Below, piece by piece: positions 1,525 to 10,097 of a DNA stretch of 10,097 nt (position 1 is the stretch's first letter; each line of letters starts with the position of its first letter). This DNA comes from a virus. Lineage: Duplodnaviria; Heunggongvirae; Uroviricota; Caudoviricetes. The stretch covers positions 1 through 10,097 of IMG/VR virus record IMGVR_UViG_2537561978_000012, one strand, 5' to 3'. The notes under the pieces were generated by a model. That model searched no databases, was not told where the DNA came from, and saw only the letters and a list, made by a program, of their open reading frames with translations. The position numbers were made by a program, and so were the translations under genes.

Positions 1525-1601
1525 TTACCTCTAAGGTAATTAAAAACCACATAAGACACGAAATCAATAGAGTTTAGAATATTTTATTACCTCACAGGTA
1601 A
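1525..1601 (-). promoter_or_regulatory. Operator pair plus candidate leftward promoter for the nin-like operon
   Basis: Two perfect TTACC-N5-GGTAA palindromes at 1525-1539 (TTACCTCTAAGGTAA) and 1587-1601 (TTACCTCACAGGTAA), 62 bp centre to centre. On the minus strand a TAAAAT -10-like hexamer immediately follows the 1587-1601 site, and a TTGATT / TTTAAT pair lies between the sites. The 1525-1539 site covers the Shine-Dalgarno and abuts the ATG at 1521. Confidence 0.55.
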
Positions 1602-1611
1602 TTATCGAGAC

Positions 1612-3410: not shown

Positions 3411-3517
3411 TTTTTCCGCCTCTTTTTGTTATTGATATTGGCTATTTTGCACAATTGGAAAATTTGATCAACCAGATTTGGTTTTTTATTACCTTTGAGG
3501 TACGAATAGATATGAAA

Positions 3518-3821: not shown

Positions 3822-3888
3822 ATATTCACCCATAAGGTAACAAAAATCAAGGATAGTTACCTATGAGGTGCATTTACCTGTTGGGTAA
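3822..3888. promoter_or_regulatory. OR-like tripartite operator with divergent promoters
   Basis: Site C 3874-3888 TTACCTGTTGGGTAA (perfect); site B 3857-3871 TTACCTATGAGGTGC (left half perfect, right half 3/5); site A 3826-3840 TCACCCATAAGGTAA (one mismatch). Candidate leftward promoter on the minus strand: -35 TTGATT (plus 3845-3850), 17-bp spacer, -10 GAATAT (plus 3822-3827), with site A inside the spacer/-10. The rightward repressor promoter is not confidently located; TAATAT at 3886-3891 is a candidate -10. Confidence 0.6.
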
Positions 3889-4548: not shown

Positions 4549-4573
4549 AAGCCGCCTCATGGCGGCTTTTTTA
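4549..4573 (+). terminator. Rho-independent terminator after the repressor gene (tImm-like)
   Basis: AAGCCGCC-TCAT-GGCGGCTT hairpin (GC-rich 6-8 bp stem) followed directly by a T-run at 4567-4572, 21 nt after the TAA stop at 4526-4528. Confidence 0.75.
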
Positions 4574-4585
4574 TTGCCAACAAGA

Positions 4586-4662
4586 TTACCTTATGGGTAA
4601 TTTTTTTAACTCATATCTATTGACATCAAACCAAATACGCATAATTATTACCTCAACGGTAA
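4586..4662 (+). promoter_or_regulatory. pL-like early promoter flanked by two perfect operators
   Basis: Perfect palindromes at 4586-4600 (TTACCTTATGGGTAA) and 4648-4662 (TTACCTCAACGGTAA). Between them a consensus -35 TTGACA at 4620-4625 and an A/T-rich -10 candidate (AATTAT, 4643-4648) after a 17-bp spacer. The downstream site overlaps the -10 and start region. Confidence 0.65.
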
Positions 4663-4681
4663 CAGACCGAGGTAACAAGTT

Positions 4682-4834
4682 ATGCAGTGGAAAATCATCA
4701 ACGGTTGGTACTGCGTTACTGCATGCGGATTCATGAGCTGGAAGTTCCGCACCTTACAGGAAGGCATTAAGTGGGCTTTCGTCAGCAAAGAAGCTCGCGA
4801 TGTGGCCAACGATAACGAGATATGGGAGGGCTGA
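4682..4834 (+). CDS. Untracked small ORF (50 aa), first gene of the pL-like operon
   Basis: ATG at 4682 preceded by GAGGT at 4669-4673 (8-nt spacing); TGA at 4832-4834, two nucleotides before the next ATG. Hand translation: MQWKIINGWYCVTACGFMSWKFRTLQEGIKWAFVSKEARDVANDNEIWEG. Missing from the track only because it is shorter than the shortest listed ORF. Not Arg-rich, so not N-like. Confidence 0.4.
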   Translation: MQWKIINGWYCVTACGFMSWKFRTLQEGIKWAFVSKEARDVANDNEIWEG

Positions 4835-4836
4835 TA

Positions 4837-5136
4837 ATGAACGTTAATCAGCAGAAAAATCTTCAAAAAATCATGCTGGCATTCGACAAGGACTACCGCC
4901 TGTCAGAACAGCTATATGACCGACAAGTTGAACTGATTGAGAGCATCCGACTTCATCAACTGTCCTCAACTTTCGACGTTGTAACAGGCAAAGGCGTTCG
5001 TCAGGAAGTGCTGGAGGCTGCTAAAGACAGCCCTGAGTTCGAAGAACTGATGGATTCCTACCGGCGCGAGGCAATGGCAATTATAGCGCGCTGGGATCTG
5101 GCGGATCAGCTTGATGGGCAGAGGGAAGCGGCATGA
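4837..5136 (+). CDS. Hypothetical protein (99 aa) immediately upstream of the exonuclease
   Basis: Track ORF 4822..5136 begins at a non-ATG codon; ATG at 4837 (MNVNQQ...) follows a GGGAGGG Shine-Dalgarno. Stop overlaps the exonuclease start (ATGA at 5133-5136). No family recognised. Confidence 0.6.
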   Translation: MNVNQQKNLQKIMLAFDKDYRLSEQLYDRQVELIESIRLHQLSSTFDVVTGKGVRQEVLEAAKDSPEFEELMDSYRREAMAIIARWDLADQLDGQREAA

Positions 5137-5954
5137 AACCGGGAATTTATTTCGACATCAGCAACGAAGACTACCACGCCGGTGACGGCGTGAGTAAGTC
5201 GCAACTGGACATGGTTGCCAAGAATCCGGCGCTTCTTAAATGGGTTCAGGCAGCACCAGAAGACGAAGAGAAAAAGTCTGCACTGGATATGGGAACCGCA
5301 TTGCACTGTCTGCTTCTGGAGCCTGGAGAATTCGACAAACGCTTCATTGTTTCACCGAAGTTCGATCGTCGGACGAAACAAGGTAAAGCTGACGAAGAGG
5401 CATTTCTTCGTGATGTGGCGGATATGGGGATTACGGTACTTGATGCCGAGCAGTGGCGGAAACTGGAGCTGATGCGTGATAGCGCAATGGCTCACCCGGC
5501 GGCACGCTGGATGTTGGAAGCACCTGGTTACTGCGAAGCGTCAATGTACTGGAACGATGAAGAAACGGGTGAGTTGTGCCGAATTCGTCCAGACAAATGG
5601 CTGAACGAGCACAACGTGATCATCGACGTGAAAAAGGTTGCAGATATGGACCGTTTTGCACGTCACATCGAGGAATTCCGCTACCACGTGCAGGACGCAA
5701 TGTACCGCGAAGGCGCAATGAGGGTTACTGGTCAGCCGCATGGTTTTTTCTTTCTTGCCGTGAGCGAAAGCATTGATTGTGGTCGGTATCCGGTACGCGT
5801 GTTCGAGCTGGATGCGCCGGATGTCGATGCCGGGCACGCTCTGTTCCGCCGGGATCTGAATACCTATCACGAATGCCGCATCAACGATGAGTGGGGCGGA
5901 GTGGAAATTATTAAACGCCCTGACTGGGCACGTAAACAGGATATGTACGTATGA
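5133..5954 (+). CDS. RecE-like PD-(D/E)XK 5'-3' exonuclease (exonuclease VIII-like domain)
   Basis: 273 aa; nuclease motif arrangement RPD ... IIDVKK (D ... D-x-K). Sits directly upstream of, and is translationally coupled to, the annealase (ATGA overlap at 5951-5954). Not similar to lambda Exo as I recall it. Confidence 0.7.
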   Translation: MKPGIYFDISNEDYHAGDGVSKSQLDMVAKNPALLKWVQAAPEDEEKKSALDMGTALHCLLLEPGEFDKRFIVSPKFDRRTKQGKADEEAFLRDVADMGITVLDAEQWRKLELMRDSAMAHPAARWMLEAPGYCEASMYWNDEETGELCRIRPDKWLNEHNVIIDVKKVADMDRFARHIEEFRYHVQDAMYREGAMRVTGQPHGFFFLAVSESIDCGRYPVRVFELDAPDVDAGHALFRRDLNTYHECRINDEWGGVEIIKRPDWARKQDMYV

Positions 5955-6832
5955 GCAATGATATCGCAATCACATCACAACCAGGCGCAACTGTAGGCAC
6001 TGCTGCGGCAATCTTCAGCCCCGAGGGAATGAATCAACTGGTGCGTTTCGCTGAGTTGATGTCACAAAGCAAAGCGACTGTACCGAAACATCTTGAAGGC
6101 AAACCTGCCGATTGCCTGGCGGTGACCATGCAGGCGGCACAGTGGGGAATGAACCCTTTCGCCGTGGCGCAGAAAACGCATGTGGTAAACGGAACGTTAG
6201 GCTACGAAGCACAGTTGGTAAACGCGGTCGTATCCTCGTCAAGCCTGCTGGCGACACGCCTGAATTATCGCTGGAGCGGTGACTGGTCGAATGTTAACGG
6301 CAAAACAGATAAATCACCGAATCTGACGGTAACTGTGTCAGCAGTTCTTAAAGGAGAAGCAGAACCACGTGAGCTTACCATCAGTATGGCGCAAGCCGGA
6401 GTGCGTAACTCTCCATTGTGGGAACAGGATCCTCGCCAGCAGCTTGCCTATCTTTGCACGAAACGATGGGCTCGCCTGCACGCTCCTGATGTACTTCTCG
6501 GTGTTTACACCCCTGACGAATTACAGGAAACGGCACCGCGCGTTGAACGAGACATTACTCCGCAAACAACTACTGCTGCGGGAATGAACAGTCTGATCAA
6601 CGCTAAACCAGTGAAAAAGCCTGATGAGCAAACGCGTAAAGCGGATAGCCGTGATCCAGAAGAAATGCTGATGGCCTTTACCAGCGCAGCGATGAATTAC
6701 AGCACTGTCTCCGAACTGGATAAGGCTTACAAATACATTGCACAAAAACTTTCAGATGATGACGAACTGCTGGCAAAAGCAACCGACGTTTACAGCGTTC
6801 GTCGGGAAGAATTAAACGAAACATCTATGTAA
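5951..6832 (+). CDS. Bet/Red-beta-family single-strand annealing protein
   Basis: 293 aa. Collinear matches to lambda Bet as I recall it: AAQWGMNPF versus ANQYGLNPW, and PRVERDITP versus QPERDITP, with a similar hydrophobic core between. Confidence 0.75.
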   Translation: MSNDIAITSQPGATVGTAAAIFSPEGMNQLVRFAELMSQSKATVPKHLEGKPADCLAVTMQAAQWGMNPFAVAQKTHVVNGTLGYEAQLVNAVVSSSSLLATRLNYRWSGDWSNVNGKTDKSPNLTVTVSAVLKGEAEPRELTISMAQAGVRNSPLWEQDPRQQLAYLCTKRWARLHAPDVLLGVYTPDELQETAPRVERDITPQTTTAAGMNSLINAKPVKKPDEQTRKADSRDPEEMLMAFTSAAMNYSTVSELDKAYKYIAQKLSDDDELLAKATDVYSVRREELNETSM

Positions 6833-7239: not shown

Positions 7240-7539
7240 GTGAGAAAGTTAAGCCGACTTGAAAAATATCACATGAATAAGGTTTCAATGCGTAGTCCGT
7301 CAAAGATTGTCGCCGTTACTCCTGCGGCGATAGAGATCGAAAAACGCGCGATTGAAAGAGAAAAAAAAGGGCAGTTCCGCATTGCCGCTCACCTTTGGCT
7401 TCAGTGTATGGATGTTGCTTCTGGTGATGTTGAGCGAGCAAGGATTGCGGTTCGCAGGGACCAATGTATCACAAAAGGTAACGGCCTTCGCCGTGGCGAC
7501 TATAGCGGCATAGGATGTTGTGGGGTGGTTTATGACTAA
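7240..7539 (+). CDS. PerC-like small regulator (tentative); start uncertain
   Basis: Track ORF begins at GTG 7240; alternative ATGs at 7273 and 7288, the latter with AAGG 5 nt upstream. Core EKKGQFRIAAHLWLQCMDV...ERARIAVRRDQC resembles the PerC-family pattern as I remember it. 3' end overlaps the methyltransferase start by 8 nt. Confidence 0.4.
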   Translation: MRKLSRLEKYHMNKVSMRSPSKIVAVTPAAIEIEKRAIEREKKGQFRIAAHLWLQCMDVASGDVERARIAVRRDQCITKGNGLRRGDYSGIGCCGVVYD

Positions 7540-8182
7540 GAAATACACACTAATCTATGCAGATCCACCCTGGGTATACCGGGACAAAGCCGCAGATGGT
7601 AATCGCGGTGCCGGTTTTAAATATCCGGTTATGAGTGTGCTTGATATCTGCCGCCTTCCTGTGTGGGATTTGGCCGATGAAAACTGTCTGTTGGCCATGT
7701 GGTGGGTGCCAACACAACCACTCGAAGCACTAAAAGTTGTTGAAGCCTGGGGATTCCGTCTGATGACCATGAAGGGCTTCACGTGGATAAAATGTGGTAG
7801 TCGACAACAAGATAAACTGGTTATGGGTATGGGTCACATGACTCGCGCCAATAGTGAAGATTGCCTGTTTGCAGTAAAGGGAAAACTACCTCCGCGCATT
7901 AATGCAGGGATCGTTCAGTCATTTACCGCACCGCGGCTTGAGCATTCAAGAAAACCAGATGTCGTTCGTGAAAAACTTGTGCAATTGTTAGGCGATGTTT
8001 CTCGCATTGAACTGTTCGCCCGCCAGTCGTCTCATGGCTTCGATGTTTGGGGTAATCAGTGCGAAGACCCGGCAGTGCAACTACACCCTGGATACGCGTT
8101 GGCTATTGGCGGATTAACAAATGCATTCAGCAATGCTCCGCTGTCACCAACAGACAACCAGGGGCGGGAGCGTTCAGCATGA
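7532..8182 (+). CDS. MT-A70-family N6-adenine DNA methyltransferase (orphan)
   Basis: Track ORF starts at GTG 7520; I prefer ATG 7532 ([14 protein letters not shown]...). Catalytic DPPW motif near the N-terminus. No adjacent restriction endonuclease candidate. TGA stop overlaps the phosphatase start (ATGA at 8179-8182). Confidence 0.8.
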
Positions 8183-8838
8183 ACCTATATCAACGCATCA
8201 ATGGCGCTGACTGGTGCAATATCTTCGTCGTCGGCGATCTGCATGGGTGCTACACGCTGCTGATGAACGAACTCGACAAAGTTTCATTCGACCCGGCGCG
8301 CGATTTGCTTATTTCCGTTGGTGACCTTGTTGACCGCGGCGCTGAAAACGTCGAATGCCTGGATTTGATTACTATGCCGTGGTTCCGAGCTGTTCGTGGC
8401 AACCATGAGCAGATGATGCTGGATGCACTGGTCAACGGCGGAAGTTTCGGACATTGGATGTCAAACGGCGGTGGATGGTGGCGCCAACTTGATTCTGAGC
8501 AGGATGTGCAACTCAAATACCTTCTGCCAAAGGTTACCAACCTCCCGATGATTATCGAACTGGTTACCGGCAATAAGAAGGTCGTCATCTGCCACGCAGA
8601 CTACCCCCACAACGAATACGCATTCGATAAGCCAGTACCGGAAGAAATGGTGATATGGAATCGTGAGCGGGTTAGCGACGCGCAGGACGGTATTGTCTCG
8701 GAGATAACCGGTGCCGATTTGTTCATCTTCGGTCATACGCCAGCACATCACCCACTAGTGTATGCAAACCAGATGTACATCGACACCGGCGCAGTGTTCT
8801 GCGGAAATCTGACGCTTACCAAAGTCCAGGAAGGATAG
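8179..8838 (+). CDS. Lambda-type Ser/Thr protein phosphatase (metallophosphoesterase)
   Basis: Track ORF starts upstream at 8059, but homology begins at ATG 8179 ([12 protein letters not shown]...). Signature motifs GDLHG, GDLVDRG and GNHE are present, and similarity to lambda phosphatase (as I recall it) runs end to end, including the C-terminal [13 protein letters not shown]. Confidence 0.9.
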
Positions 8839-8840
8839 AA

Positions 8841-10097
8841 TTATTTATTACTGTCTTCCATCCACTTCTCAAACTTCGACGGGGAGAACGGAATCAGATC
8901 CGTATGCTCCCCGTTAATCCAGGAATCAATCATATCGGCCCACTGCTGCAACATGTAGGCGCGCTGTCTGGCGTATTCCGCTTTGTTATATACGGCGCGC
9001 ACACCTTTCTGCTCATGTGCCAGAGCCTTTTCAATCCAGTCTGAAGGATAACCAGCCTCATGCAACAACGTACTGGCTGTACGGCGCATATCATGTACAG
9101 TGAAGTCCTGAATATACTCACCATCTTCATTTATTATTTTCACCGTTCTGTCGATCAGAGAGTTCAGTGCGGCATTAGATAATGGCTTCCGGAAATTGTA
9201 ACGACCAGGAACCAGATATTCACTTCCACCAGCGCACATCTGCAACCCAACCAATATATCCTGTGCCTGTTTTGGCAGGTAAATAACGTGCGCCCGGCTT
9301 CCCTTCATGCGGTCTGAAGGAATTGTCCATGTCCATTTTTTAAAATCTATTTCGTCCCACGTTGCATTGGTGAATTCGCCTTTACGAACCATAGTGATAA
9401 GCACCAGTTTTAAAGCCATTTTCATAGTGCCCATAGCACCAATGGCATCCAGCGTGCGGAAGAAAAGACCAATTTCTTCTGGTGTCAGCGTTCGCTCTCG
9501 TGGTTTAAATATGGCGATAGACGAAGGCTTAATATCAGCCGCAGGATTAAACAAACCATGACCGCGGTCATTGGCGTGACGGTATACGCTGCTGATGATC
9601 TCCCTGGCCTGCACTGCTGTTGCCCGGCCACCGCGTTCGACAATCCGGTCACACAAATCACGAACCATCGATGTGGTAATTTCAGCCATCATTTTGTTGC
9701 CAAGAACCGGAAGTATGTCACGGTCGATCACCGCCTGCTTCATTGCGCGGGTACTGTCAGCCAGGATGACGTGTTTCATATAACTGTCGGTATGTACCGC
9801 AAACGTCTCGGCACCACGAATCTTTTTGATACCGTCACGTTTAGCCGCAGCCGGCGACTGGCCTGCTTTAAGCAACTTCTTTGCAGCAATCAGTTCTTCC
9901 CGCGCTTCTGCCAGGCTGATACCGTCACGCCCATACTGCCCGATTACCAGTGTTTCGCGGCGACCGTTGATACGGTAGTCATAGCGAAACGAGACCGTAC
10001 CTGACGTAAGCACAGCTACATACAGCCCGTCACGATCGGAGACCTTGTACAGTTTGTCCTGCGGCTTGAGGTTTTTTAATTTTGTATCGGTAAGCAC
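8841..10097 (-). CDS. int: P4-type tyrosine integrase; N-terminus at or just beyond the right window edge
   Basis: 418 aa. N-terminal LTDTKLKNLKP...YKVSDRDGLYV...FRYDYRINGRRETL is typical of the arm-binding domain of P4-family integrases. C-terminal catalytic region includes HDMRRT and a Tyr-containing tail (RAVYNKAEY). First codon in the window is GTG at 10097..10095, so the true start may lie just outside. Convergent with the phosphatase gene, 2-nt gap. Confidence 0.9.
   Translation of the reverse strand: MLTDTKLKNLKPQDKLYKVSDRDGLYVAVLTSGTVSFRYDYRINGRRETLVIGQYGRDGISLAEAREELIAAKKLLKAGQSPAAAKRDGIKKIRGAETFAVHTDSYMKHVILADSTRAMKQAVIDRDILPVLGNKMMAEITTSMVRDLCDRIVERGGRATAVQAREIISSVYRHANDRGHGLFNPAADIKPSSIAIFKPRERTLTPEEIGLFFRTLDAIGAMGTMKMALKLVLITMVRKGEFTNATWDEIDFKKWTWTIPSDRMKGSRAHVIYLPKQAQDILVGLQMCAGGSEYLVPGRYNFRKPLSNAALNSLIDRTVKIINEDGEYIQDFTVHDMRRTASTLLHEAGYPSDWIEKALAHEQKGVRAVYNKAEYARQRAYMLQQWADMIDSWINGEHTDLIPFSPSKFEKWMEDSNK

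Follow-up and report, generated by a model that had tools for sequence, protein, structure and literature searches.

A conserved 50-codon gene behind the pL-like promoter of a phiV10/epsilon15-like prophage

In phages lambda and P22, N and gp24 respectively occupy the same slot: each lies downstream of the repressor gene and is the first gene to be transcribed from a leftward early promoter under operator control. What occupies this slot in temperate phages of other groups? The question is raised by a 10,097-nucleotide stretch of viral DNA (IMG/VR record IMGVR_UViG_2537561978_000012, hereafter the window), in which a 50-codon open reading frame (ORF) stands in the corresponding place. A preliminary description, made from the nucleotide sequence, had pointed out this small ORF, held it to be distinct from N-type antiterminators, and suggested a regulator, a host-takeover factor or an anti-defence factor.

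The window covers the early region of a prophage of the Uetakevirus (phiV10/epsilon15-like) type. It shares 95-98% identity with Uetakevirus phages, among them phiV10, TL-2011b, ZX5 and the O157 typing phages 9 and 10; a looser relationship links it to Enterobacter BUCT554 and Salmonella PAT1. This prophage region was found in 558 of 5,426 complete E. coli genomes (about 10%), and the exact small-ORF protein is encoded on at least 1,000 contigs. The megablast matches to Salmonella PAT1 and to a prophage of EPEC E2348/69 are confined to the small ORF (window positions 4681-4826 and 4681-4752, respectively), which therefore forms a conserved island at a mosaic joint.

The slot itself is well defined (Table 1). 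Directly upstream, and co-directional, lies a repressor gene whose product contains only helix-turn-helix domains, with no S24 peptidase domain in Pfam searches. This protein is homologous to PDB 5D50 (titled 'Repressor'; E 4.5e-42), presumably Rep of phage SPC32H. In SPC32H, Rep assembles as a tetramer bridging palindromic sites, and an antirepressor takes it apart (PMC9638917). The repressor transcript ends at a strong intrinsic terminator, beyond which the best promoter match of the window is flanked by two copies of the palindrome TTACC-N5-GGTAA. Seven such palindromes occur in the window, against 0.15 expected by chance. Because the proximal copy overlaps the end of the −10 element, the leader ahead of the small ORF is only about 27 nucleotides long. 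In relatives, too, an operator pair spaced by 62 bp surrounds the promoter, and a palindrome lies at most 50 nucleotides upstream of the small-ORF start codon in 120 of 121 loci. The pL-like promoter and operator of the preliminary description are thus well supported by the best promoter match and the two flanking palindromes. So is the likening of this site to the lambda N slot: the small ORF is the first cistron after an operator-flanked promoter, downstream of a repressor gene and its terminator.

The remaining palindromes are found at 1525-1539, 1587-1601, 3489-3503, 3826-3840 and 3874-3888. A second operator-flanked promoter (about 1581-1608, minus strand) precedes the ORF at 1521-1177, and its palindromes, like those at pL, have centres 62 bp apart, as would suit a tetrameric repressor of the SPC32H type that bridges the two sites. 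Between the divergently oriented repressor and cro-like genes, the two palindromes are spaced by 48 bp. The right half-site (AGGTAA) of the palindrome at 1525-1539 appears to double as the Shine-Dalgarno sequence of the next gene.

Table 1. Features from the repressor gene to recT, in window coordinates
Feature	Position	Strand	Remarks
Repressor gene, dual helix-turn-helix, 194 aa	3944-4528	+	Pfam HTH_3; directly upstream of and co-directional with the small ORF
Intrinsic terminator of the repressor transcript	4549-4574	+	8-bp stem with 6 GC pairs, then a T-tract; also delimited as 4549-4568; annotated in phiV10
Distal operator palindrome	4586-4600	.	TTACCTTATGGGTAA; centre 62 bp from that of the proximal site
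Early-left (pL-like) promoter	4620-4648	+	TTGACA at 4620, AATTAT at 4648, 17 nt between; best sigma-70 match in the window, 10/12
Proximal operator palindrome	4648-4662	.	TTACCTCAACGGTAA; overlaps the end of the −10 element and the inferred start of transcription; 34 nt upstream of the ATG
Shine-Dalgarno sequence of the small ORF	4669-4673	+	GAGGT; 8-nt spacer to the ATG
Small ORF, 50 aa	4682-4834	+	ATG 4682-4684, 50 sense codons, TGA 4832-4834; PHROG 898 family of epsilon15 gp37; = PhiV10p39, WP_001198620.1
Shine-Dalgarno sequence of the next gene	4824-4829	+	GGGAGG; inside codons 48-50 of the small ORF
Next cistron, p99, 99 aa	4837-5136	+	PHROG 856; no Pfam match
RecE-like PD-(D/E)XK exonuclease (DUF3799)	5133-5954	+	domain and profile match
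RecT single-strand annealing protein	5951-6832	+	domain and profile match

Is the small ORF a gene? Its layout is as first reported, with 50 codons, a well-spaced GAGGT and a stop codon 2 nucleotides before the next gene, all borne out by the sequence. The predicted product is MQWKIINGWYCVTACGFMSWKFRTLQEGIKWAFVSKEARDVANDNEIWEG, with five Trp, two Cys and two Arg residues and a pI of 6.1. Since the window contains 83 ORFs of at least 40 aa, a length of 50 codons is in itself no evidence of a gene; the case therefore rests on context and conservation. A Shine-Dalgarno-like motif precedes the small ORF in 118 of 121 loci. The protein matches the PHROG 898 profile over its entire length (E 1.9e-38, residues 1-50 on positions 1-50 of 50), and is 100% identical to products of phiV10, TL-2011b (both by tblastn) and ZX5. 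The phiV10 copy is annotated as PhiV10p39 (AAZ95928.1), 'similar to epsilon15p37', and the RefSeq entry for the identical protein, WP_001198620.1, reads hypothetical protein. The small ORF thus belongs to a family of hypothetical genes that had already been catalogued for Uetakevirus phages, and does not differ from epsilon15 gp37 and phiV10 gp39 in family or synteny. It had been introduced as untracked, which is true of the ORF track supplied with the window but not of phiV10, TL-2011b, ZX5 or RefSeq, where it is annotated. Annotation is nonetheless inconsistent, as PGAP skips the intact ORF in some genomes.

Two such cases are the E. coli loci L105 and L106 (NZ_OZ546967.1 and NZ_CP072688.1), in which the PGAP-unannotated ORF is intact; one encodes the identical protein, and the other differs only by R39L.

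PHROG 898 is annotated as unknown function, and searches of the accessible literature by locus tag, accession number and PHROG identifier returned no paper mentioning the family.

Selection on the reading frame was assessed in divergent loci from Scandinavium, Pseudocitrobacter, Citrobacter, Klebsiella, Erwinia, Serratia, Hafnia and metagenomes; the 80 protein-identical loci of the first viral scan, having been chosen for identity, were left out of these tests. Frame +1 is the only frame free of stop codons in all 18 divergent loci. The median dN/dS is 0.26 (pairwise Nei-Gojobori, dS about 1.2), and differs between parts of the ORF: 0.13 in codons 1-25, and 0.43 in the remaining codons. The ORF is intact in all 103 further viral loci, its length stays at 47-51 codons in hosts as distant as Serratia and Hafnia, and frameshifted variants are rare and occur only as singletons. 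The small ORF is a genuine protein-coding gene under purifying selection; its status stands above chance because of the full-length PHROG 898 match, the sole open frame in 18 loci, and the dN/dS value.

Which parts of the protein are conserved? The core spans approximately residues 1-40. Residues 1-25 are almost invariant among the Enterobacteriaceae phages sampled, and the core is near-invariant across phages of E. coli, Salmonella, Klebsiella, Citrobacter and Enterobacter whose repressors are 41-75% identical to that of the window. When distant homologues are included, G8, T13 and F33 are invariant, and Y10, G16, S19, F22 and A38 nearly so. Among the Trp residues, only W3, W20 and W31 are broadly kept in distant homologues; C11 is replaced by Y, L, F, H or I, and C15 by S or G. 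The Trp/Cys-rich composition noted earlier is therefore real in this copy but is a trait of one lineage, as the Cys residues and most of the Trp residues are not conserved. A zinc-binding or disulfide-bonded mini-protein was considered, but conserved Cys or His ligands are absent; metal binding and disulfides are unlikely because both Cys residues are dispensable.

Structure prediction by AF2 with the deeper alignment gives strands at residues 2-6, 9-14 and 18-22 followed by helices at 25-34 and 36-44 (pLDDT 71.9). An earlier run on 17 close sequences had yielded an all-helix model with pLDDT 56, and was set aside for the deeper-alignment model. The core is thus predicted to form a small, soluble domain in which three beta-strands precede the helices, and it appears to lack a transmembrane segment, conserved metal ligands, a helix-turn-helix and an arginine-rich motif. 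Fold searches with the AF2 model returned no significant structural analogue, and sequence searches of Pfam, NCBIfam, PADLOC and PDB matched no family; a PDB sequence match to designed 'Bagel' propellers was dismissed as a short-motif artefact. An HMM search of 1.84 billion cluster representatives recovered only small members of the same family and one repeat protein (P0030, 1,929 residues), likewise a short-motif artefact. A locus scan with P0034 found nothing, and alignment A6 was too diverse to serve for such a scan. The family is restricted to phages of Enterobacterales, and no homologue was found outside the phiV10/epsilon15 phage group.

The start of the gene also has the potential to fold as RNA. 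Within 4682-4717, the sequence around the start codon, AUGCAGUG, is complementary to UACUGCGU in codons 10-12, and the predicted hairpin has a minimum free energy of −17.5 kcal/mol and a z-score of −2.5. It is in codons 1-12 that synonymous divergence reaches its minimum (dS 0.22, versus 0.69 and 1.04 further along the ORF). The hairpin is present across the close clade, with no covariation; in L087 its pairing is disrupted, and distant relatives lack it. That the hairpin causes the low dS of codons 1-12 is unproven.

At its other end, the gene is closely joined to its neighbour. In the window, the next start codon is at 4837 (TGA-TA-ATG), and the next gene's Shine-Dalgarno sequence lies within the last codons of the small ORF. 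In relatives, the last codons are G-rich and Shine-Dalgarno-like, ahead of an overlapping ATGA or GTGA junction. The variable last five to six residues are encoded by these G-rich codons, and the embedded ribosome-binding site probably accounts for W48, E49 and G50 of the window's protein. Across 121 surveyed loci, many of them closely related, the next start codon overlaps the small-ORF stop or lies at most 4 nucleotides from it without exception. A crude codon check assigned an ATGA, GTGA or 8-nucleotide overlap to 113 of the 121 and a 2-nucleotide gap to the other 8; this check over-counts some GTGA cases, the annotated next start of L003, for example, being 4 nucleotides after the stop. 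The small ORF therefore has the arrangement of a translationally coupled cistron, with a stop codon that abuts or overlaps the next start and the next Shine-Dalgarno sequence inside its 3' end.

What follows the junction is less constant. The gene order is that of repressor gene, small ORF, one or more variable genes, exonuclease and RecT: all 121 loci have the repressor gene ahead of the small ORF, a RecT homologue is downstream in 115 of the 116 that could be tested, and the phage records with the small ORF are the same 36 of 36 as those with the repressor. Five families at least are represented by the gene after the small ORF (PHROG 856, PHROG 1376, Pfam Gam, p94/p101 and a long RecE-like exonuclease). 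In L087, the exonuclease/RecT pair is replaced by YqaJ and another RecT family while the small ORF is retained; because of this, the small ORF is not tied to one recombinase. The constant unit comprises the operator, the Shine-Dalgarno sequence, the small ORF and the tight junction.

In the window, the variable position is filled by p99, in all probability a nuclease inhibitor related to Gam but diverged from it. Compared directly with lambda Gam, p99 matches weakly; comparison of the p99 family with its positional equivalents by hhalign gave a probability of 88.9% (E 2.4e-6), and these equivalents include a Pfam Gam protein in L094 (PF06064, E 3.6e-12) and a GamL protein in L103 (PF28165).

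The RecE-like and RecT proteins are encoded here by two ORFs that overlap by 4 nucleotides, whereas the phiV10 GenBank record annotates one fused 'recET' coding sequence; the fusion may reflect a frameshift or a sequencing difference in the phiV10 record.

What might the small protein do? None of the roles offered in the preliminary description (regulator, host takeover, anti-defence) is favoured by homology. The best overall explanation, which taken whole is somewhat more probable than improbable, is that the small gene is the promoter-proximal cistron of a Rep-controlled early-left operon and that its translation is coupled to the genes downstream. In a lysogen, the repressor would occupy the two flanking operators and shut the promoter. 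Upon induction or infection, the 50-residue product would be the first left-operon protein made, from its short leader and GAGGT Shine-Dalgarno sequence. Its last five to six codons also provide the next cistron with its ribosome-binding site; the abutting or overlapping stop and start codons, together with the Shine-Dalgarno sequence in the last codons, suggest that translation of the small ORF feeds ribosomes to the Gam-like/RecE-like/RecT module. Unlike lambda N, the protein itself would have neither RNA nor DNA as its target. More tentatively, and with a probability well short of even, the peptide may work by binding another protein, either a conserved one of the host or a part of the recombination or anti-nuclease machinery, and so serve as an early factor with an accessory or takeover role.

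P22 Arf, the 47-residue cofactor of Erf, sets a precedent for coupling between a recombinase and a small accessory protein. Its gene is likewise a tiny early-left ORF just upstream of the recombination genes, and its stop codon overlaps the erf start by 4 nucleotides. Arf differs in being highly acidic, and shows no sequence similarity to the small ORF (E 0.88). Indeed, similarity was seen to none of the P22 and lambda pL-operon proteins tested (Arf, Kil, C3/cIII, Ral, Abc1/2, Ea10, N and orf60a).

An unlikely further step would make the core of approximately 40 residues a beta-beta-beta-alpha mini-domain and a hitherto unrecognised kind of early effector of phages, fixed as what the SPC32H/epsilon15-type switch produces first. 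If so, the effector might bind a highly conserved enterobacterial protein such as a nuclease, a protein of cell division or a transcription factor; alternatively, it might gate the recombination module through the peptide and coupled translation together. The clade-specific hairpin, by sequestering the start codon, might then regulate the effector. The finding is modest, in that the gene was correctly spotted but already catalogued. Still, it concerns an uncharacterised core early gene, the first of the early-left operon in a very common prophage. Its role could show how the SPC32H-type Rep/Ant switch, which has been studied structurally, hands over to lytic functions as well as to the Gam-like/RecE/RecT recombination module.

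Among alternative partners, the nearest at hand are the components of the lysis-lysogeny switch: Rep, Ant or the Cro-like protein. The small protein could act on one of these as a feed-forward anti-repressor, like P1 Coi, or as a stabiliser, like lambda cIII, locking the choice once pL has fired. The gene does adjoin an SPC32H-type repressor gene, with which it co-occurs in 36 of 36 phage records and 121 of 121 loci, and its operator palindrome stays 27-34 nucleotides before the ATG despite inserted genes or a 75-nucleotide leader. Moreover, the repressor lacks an S24 peptidase domain, so that induction would proceed through protein partners such as the SPC32H antirepressor Ant. The co-occurrence is confounded, however, every locus being from the same phage group. 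Residues 1-25 are almost invariant although the repressors have diverged to 41-45% identity, and there is no co-variation with Rep. Lambda cIII and P22 C3 are also small pL-operon proteins, but the small protein has no similarity to either and no detected cIII-type amphipathic helix motif. A part in the switch is thus rather unlikely, and because the core is near-invariant while the repressors are only 41-45% identical, this pattern argues for a conserved host or phage target over the repressor as partner.

A second possibility is a Kil-like host-takeover toxin, blocking cell division, for example. Lambda Kil, P22 Kil and Rac KilR are small early-left proteins encoded just before gam or a recombination module, and the small ORF has the same relative slot as lambda kil, directly upstream of gam, and P22 kil-arf, upstream of erf. 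In size it is close to lambda Kil (47 residues). Operators on both sides of the promoter, with a third beside the Shine-Dalgarno sequence in some relatives, indicate tight repression. No similarity to lambda or P22 Kil was detected (hmmsearch E 0.35 and 0.96, in tiny databases), as might be expected in any case, since Kil proteins are too diverse for sequence matching. The small protein is near-neutral and predicted to be beta-rich, however, whereas lambda Kil is basic (pI 9.6), and a Kil-like function is quite unlikely.

Phage early operons often begin with anti-defence genes, and the small protein might accordingly counter host restriction or abortive infection. Its family is confined to phages of Enterobacterales, and in a related locus the same operon carries a Lar restriction-alleviation gene and a methylase. 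Against this, anti-defence genes are usually variable accessory genes of hot spots, whereas the small ORF is a fixed core gene whose product has a nearly invariant core, and the variable slot is that of the gene after it. PADLOC gave no match, and sequence and fold searches of PDB and BFVD retrieved no anti-defence protein. This role is very unlikely.

Could translation matter and the peptide not? A mere leader ORF would couple ribosomes to the next cistron or shield the transcript from Rho, its peptide being functionless. The invariably tight junction, whatever the downstream gene, and the Shine-Dalgarno sequence embedded in the last codons are what such an ORF would require. A pure coupling ORF would drift in sequence, however, and this peptide is not free to vary: its amino-acid sequence is strongly conserved, most of all in codons 1-25, and its length is fixed out to Serratia and Hafnia. 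A functionless leader peptide is highly improbable.

Finally, the proposal that the small protein is a functional analogue of lambda N, letting early transcripts pass terminators such as the strong one after the cro-like gene (3537-3518, minus strand), is largely refuted and hardly credible: it draws on the positional N slot, on that terminator, on a terminator-like hairpin in the leader of some relatives, and on the boxB-like geometry of the palindromes (5-bp stem, 5-nucleotide loop), but is opposed by a near-neutral protein without an arginine-rich motif, by the missing boxA, by palindromes that behave as DNA operators, by separate operator-flanked promoters for the pL unit and for the unit before the ORF at 1521-1177, by a palindrome upstream of a weak candidate promoter for the third early unit (ORF70), and by the lack of any plus-strand terminator within the left operon. 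Lambda N has 133 residues, 12% Arg and a pI of 10.7 (NC_001416); the small protein has 50 residues, 4% Arg and a pI of 6.1. Unlike N and gp24, it is accompanied by no nut site, and follows a much abbreviated leader. Its profile shows no similarity to lambda N (E 0.81 in a 9-sequence search). No boxA was found; four matches with one mismatch occur, versus 7.5 expected, none of them in the leader, and Rfam gave no family match. Terminator-like sites on the plus strand are absent between position 4834 and the end of the left operon. The preliminary description was right on both counts, in setting the ORF apart from N-type antiterminators and in seeing no nut element.

The palindromes were also considered as boxB hairpins, and this was rejected: conservation is confined to their stems, the loops being variable, and their positions on either side of promoters are those of DNA operators.

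In several relatives (L003 at 2398-2501, L084, L086, L087, L088 and L098), an insert of about 75 nucleotides separates the promoter-proximal operator from the small ORF. It contains a GC hairpin with a U-tract, which resembles a terminator, and a third operator palindrome that adjoins the Shine-Dalgarno sequence. Rfam searches with the insert found no match. The clearest hairpin is that of L087 (CCACC-ACCG-GGTGG-UUUUCUC).

On the other side of the repressor gene, the strong intrinsic terminator directly follows the cro-like gene. Beyond it lie the palindrome at 3489-3503 and a weak candidate promoter (TTGATC-16-CAAAAT), which precedes a 70-residue ORF and the DnaT-like and P-like replication genes. 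The replication genes may depend on read-through of the cro-like terminator or on the weak candidate promoter.

The distal part of the left operon holds ORFs at 7240-7539, 7520-8182 and 8059-8838. It includes a PerC-family transcriptional activator (Pfam PF06069, E 6e-7), and PerC homologues activate virulence genes in EPEC and EHEC. By their position in relatives, the ORFs after PerC are a putative MT-A70-type adenine methylase and then a putative phosphatase-like ORF. Facing the end of the left operon, in convergent orientation, is the integrase gene (8841-10097).
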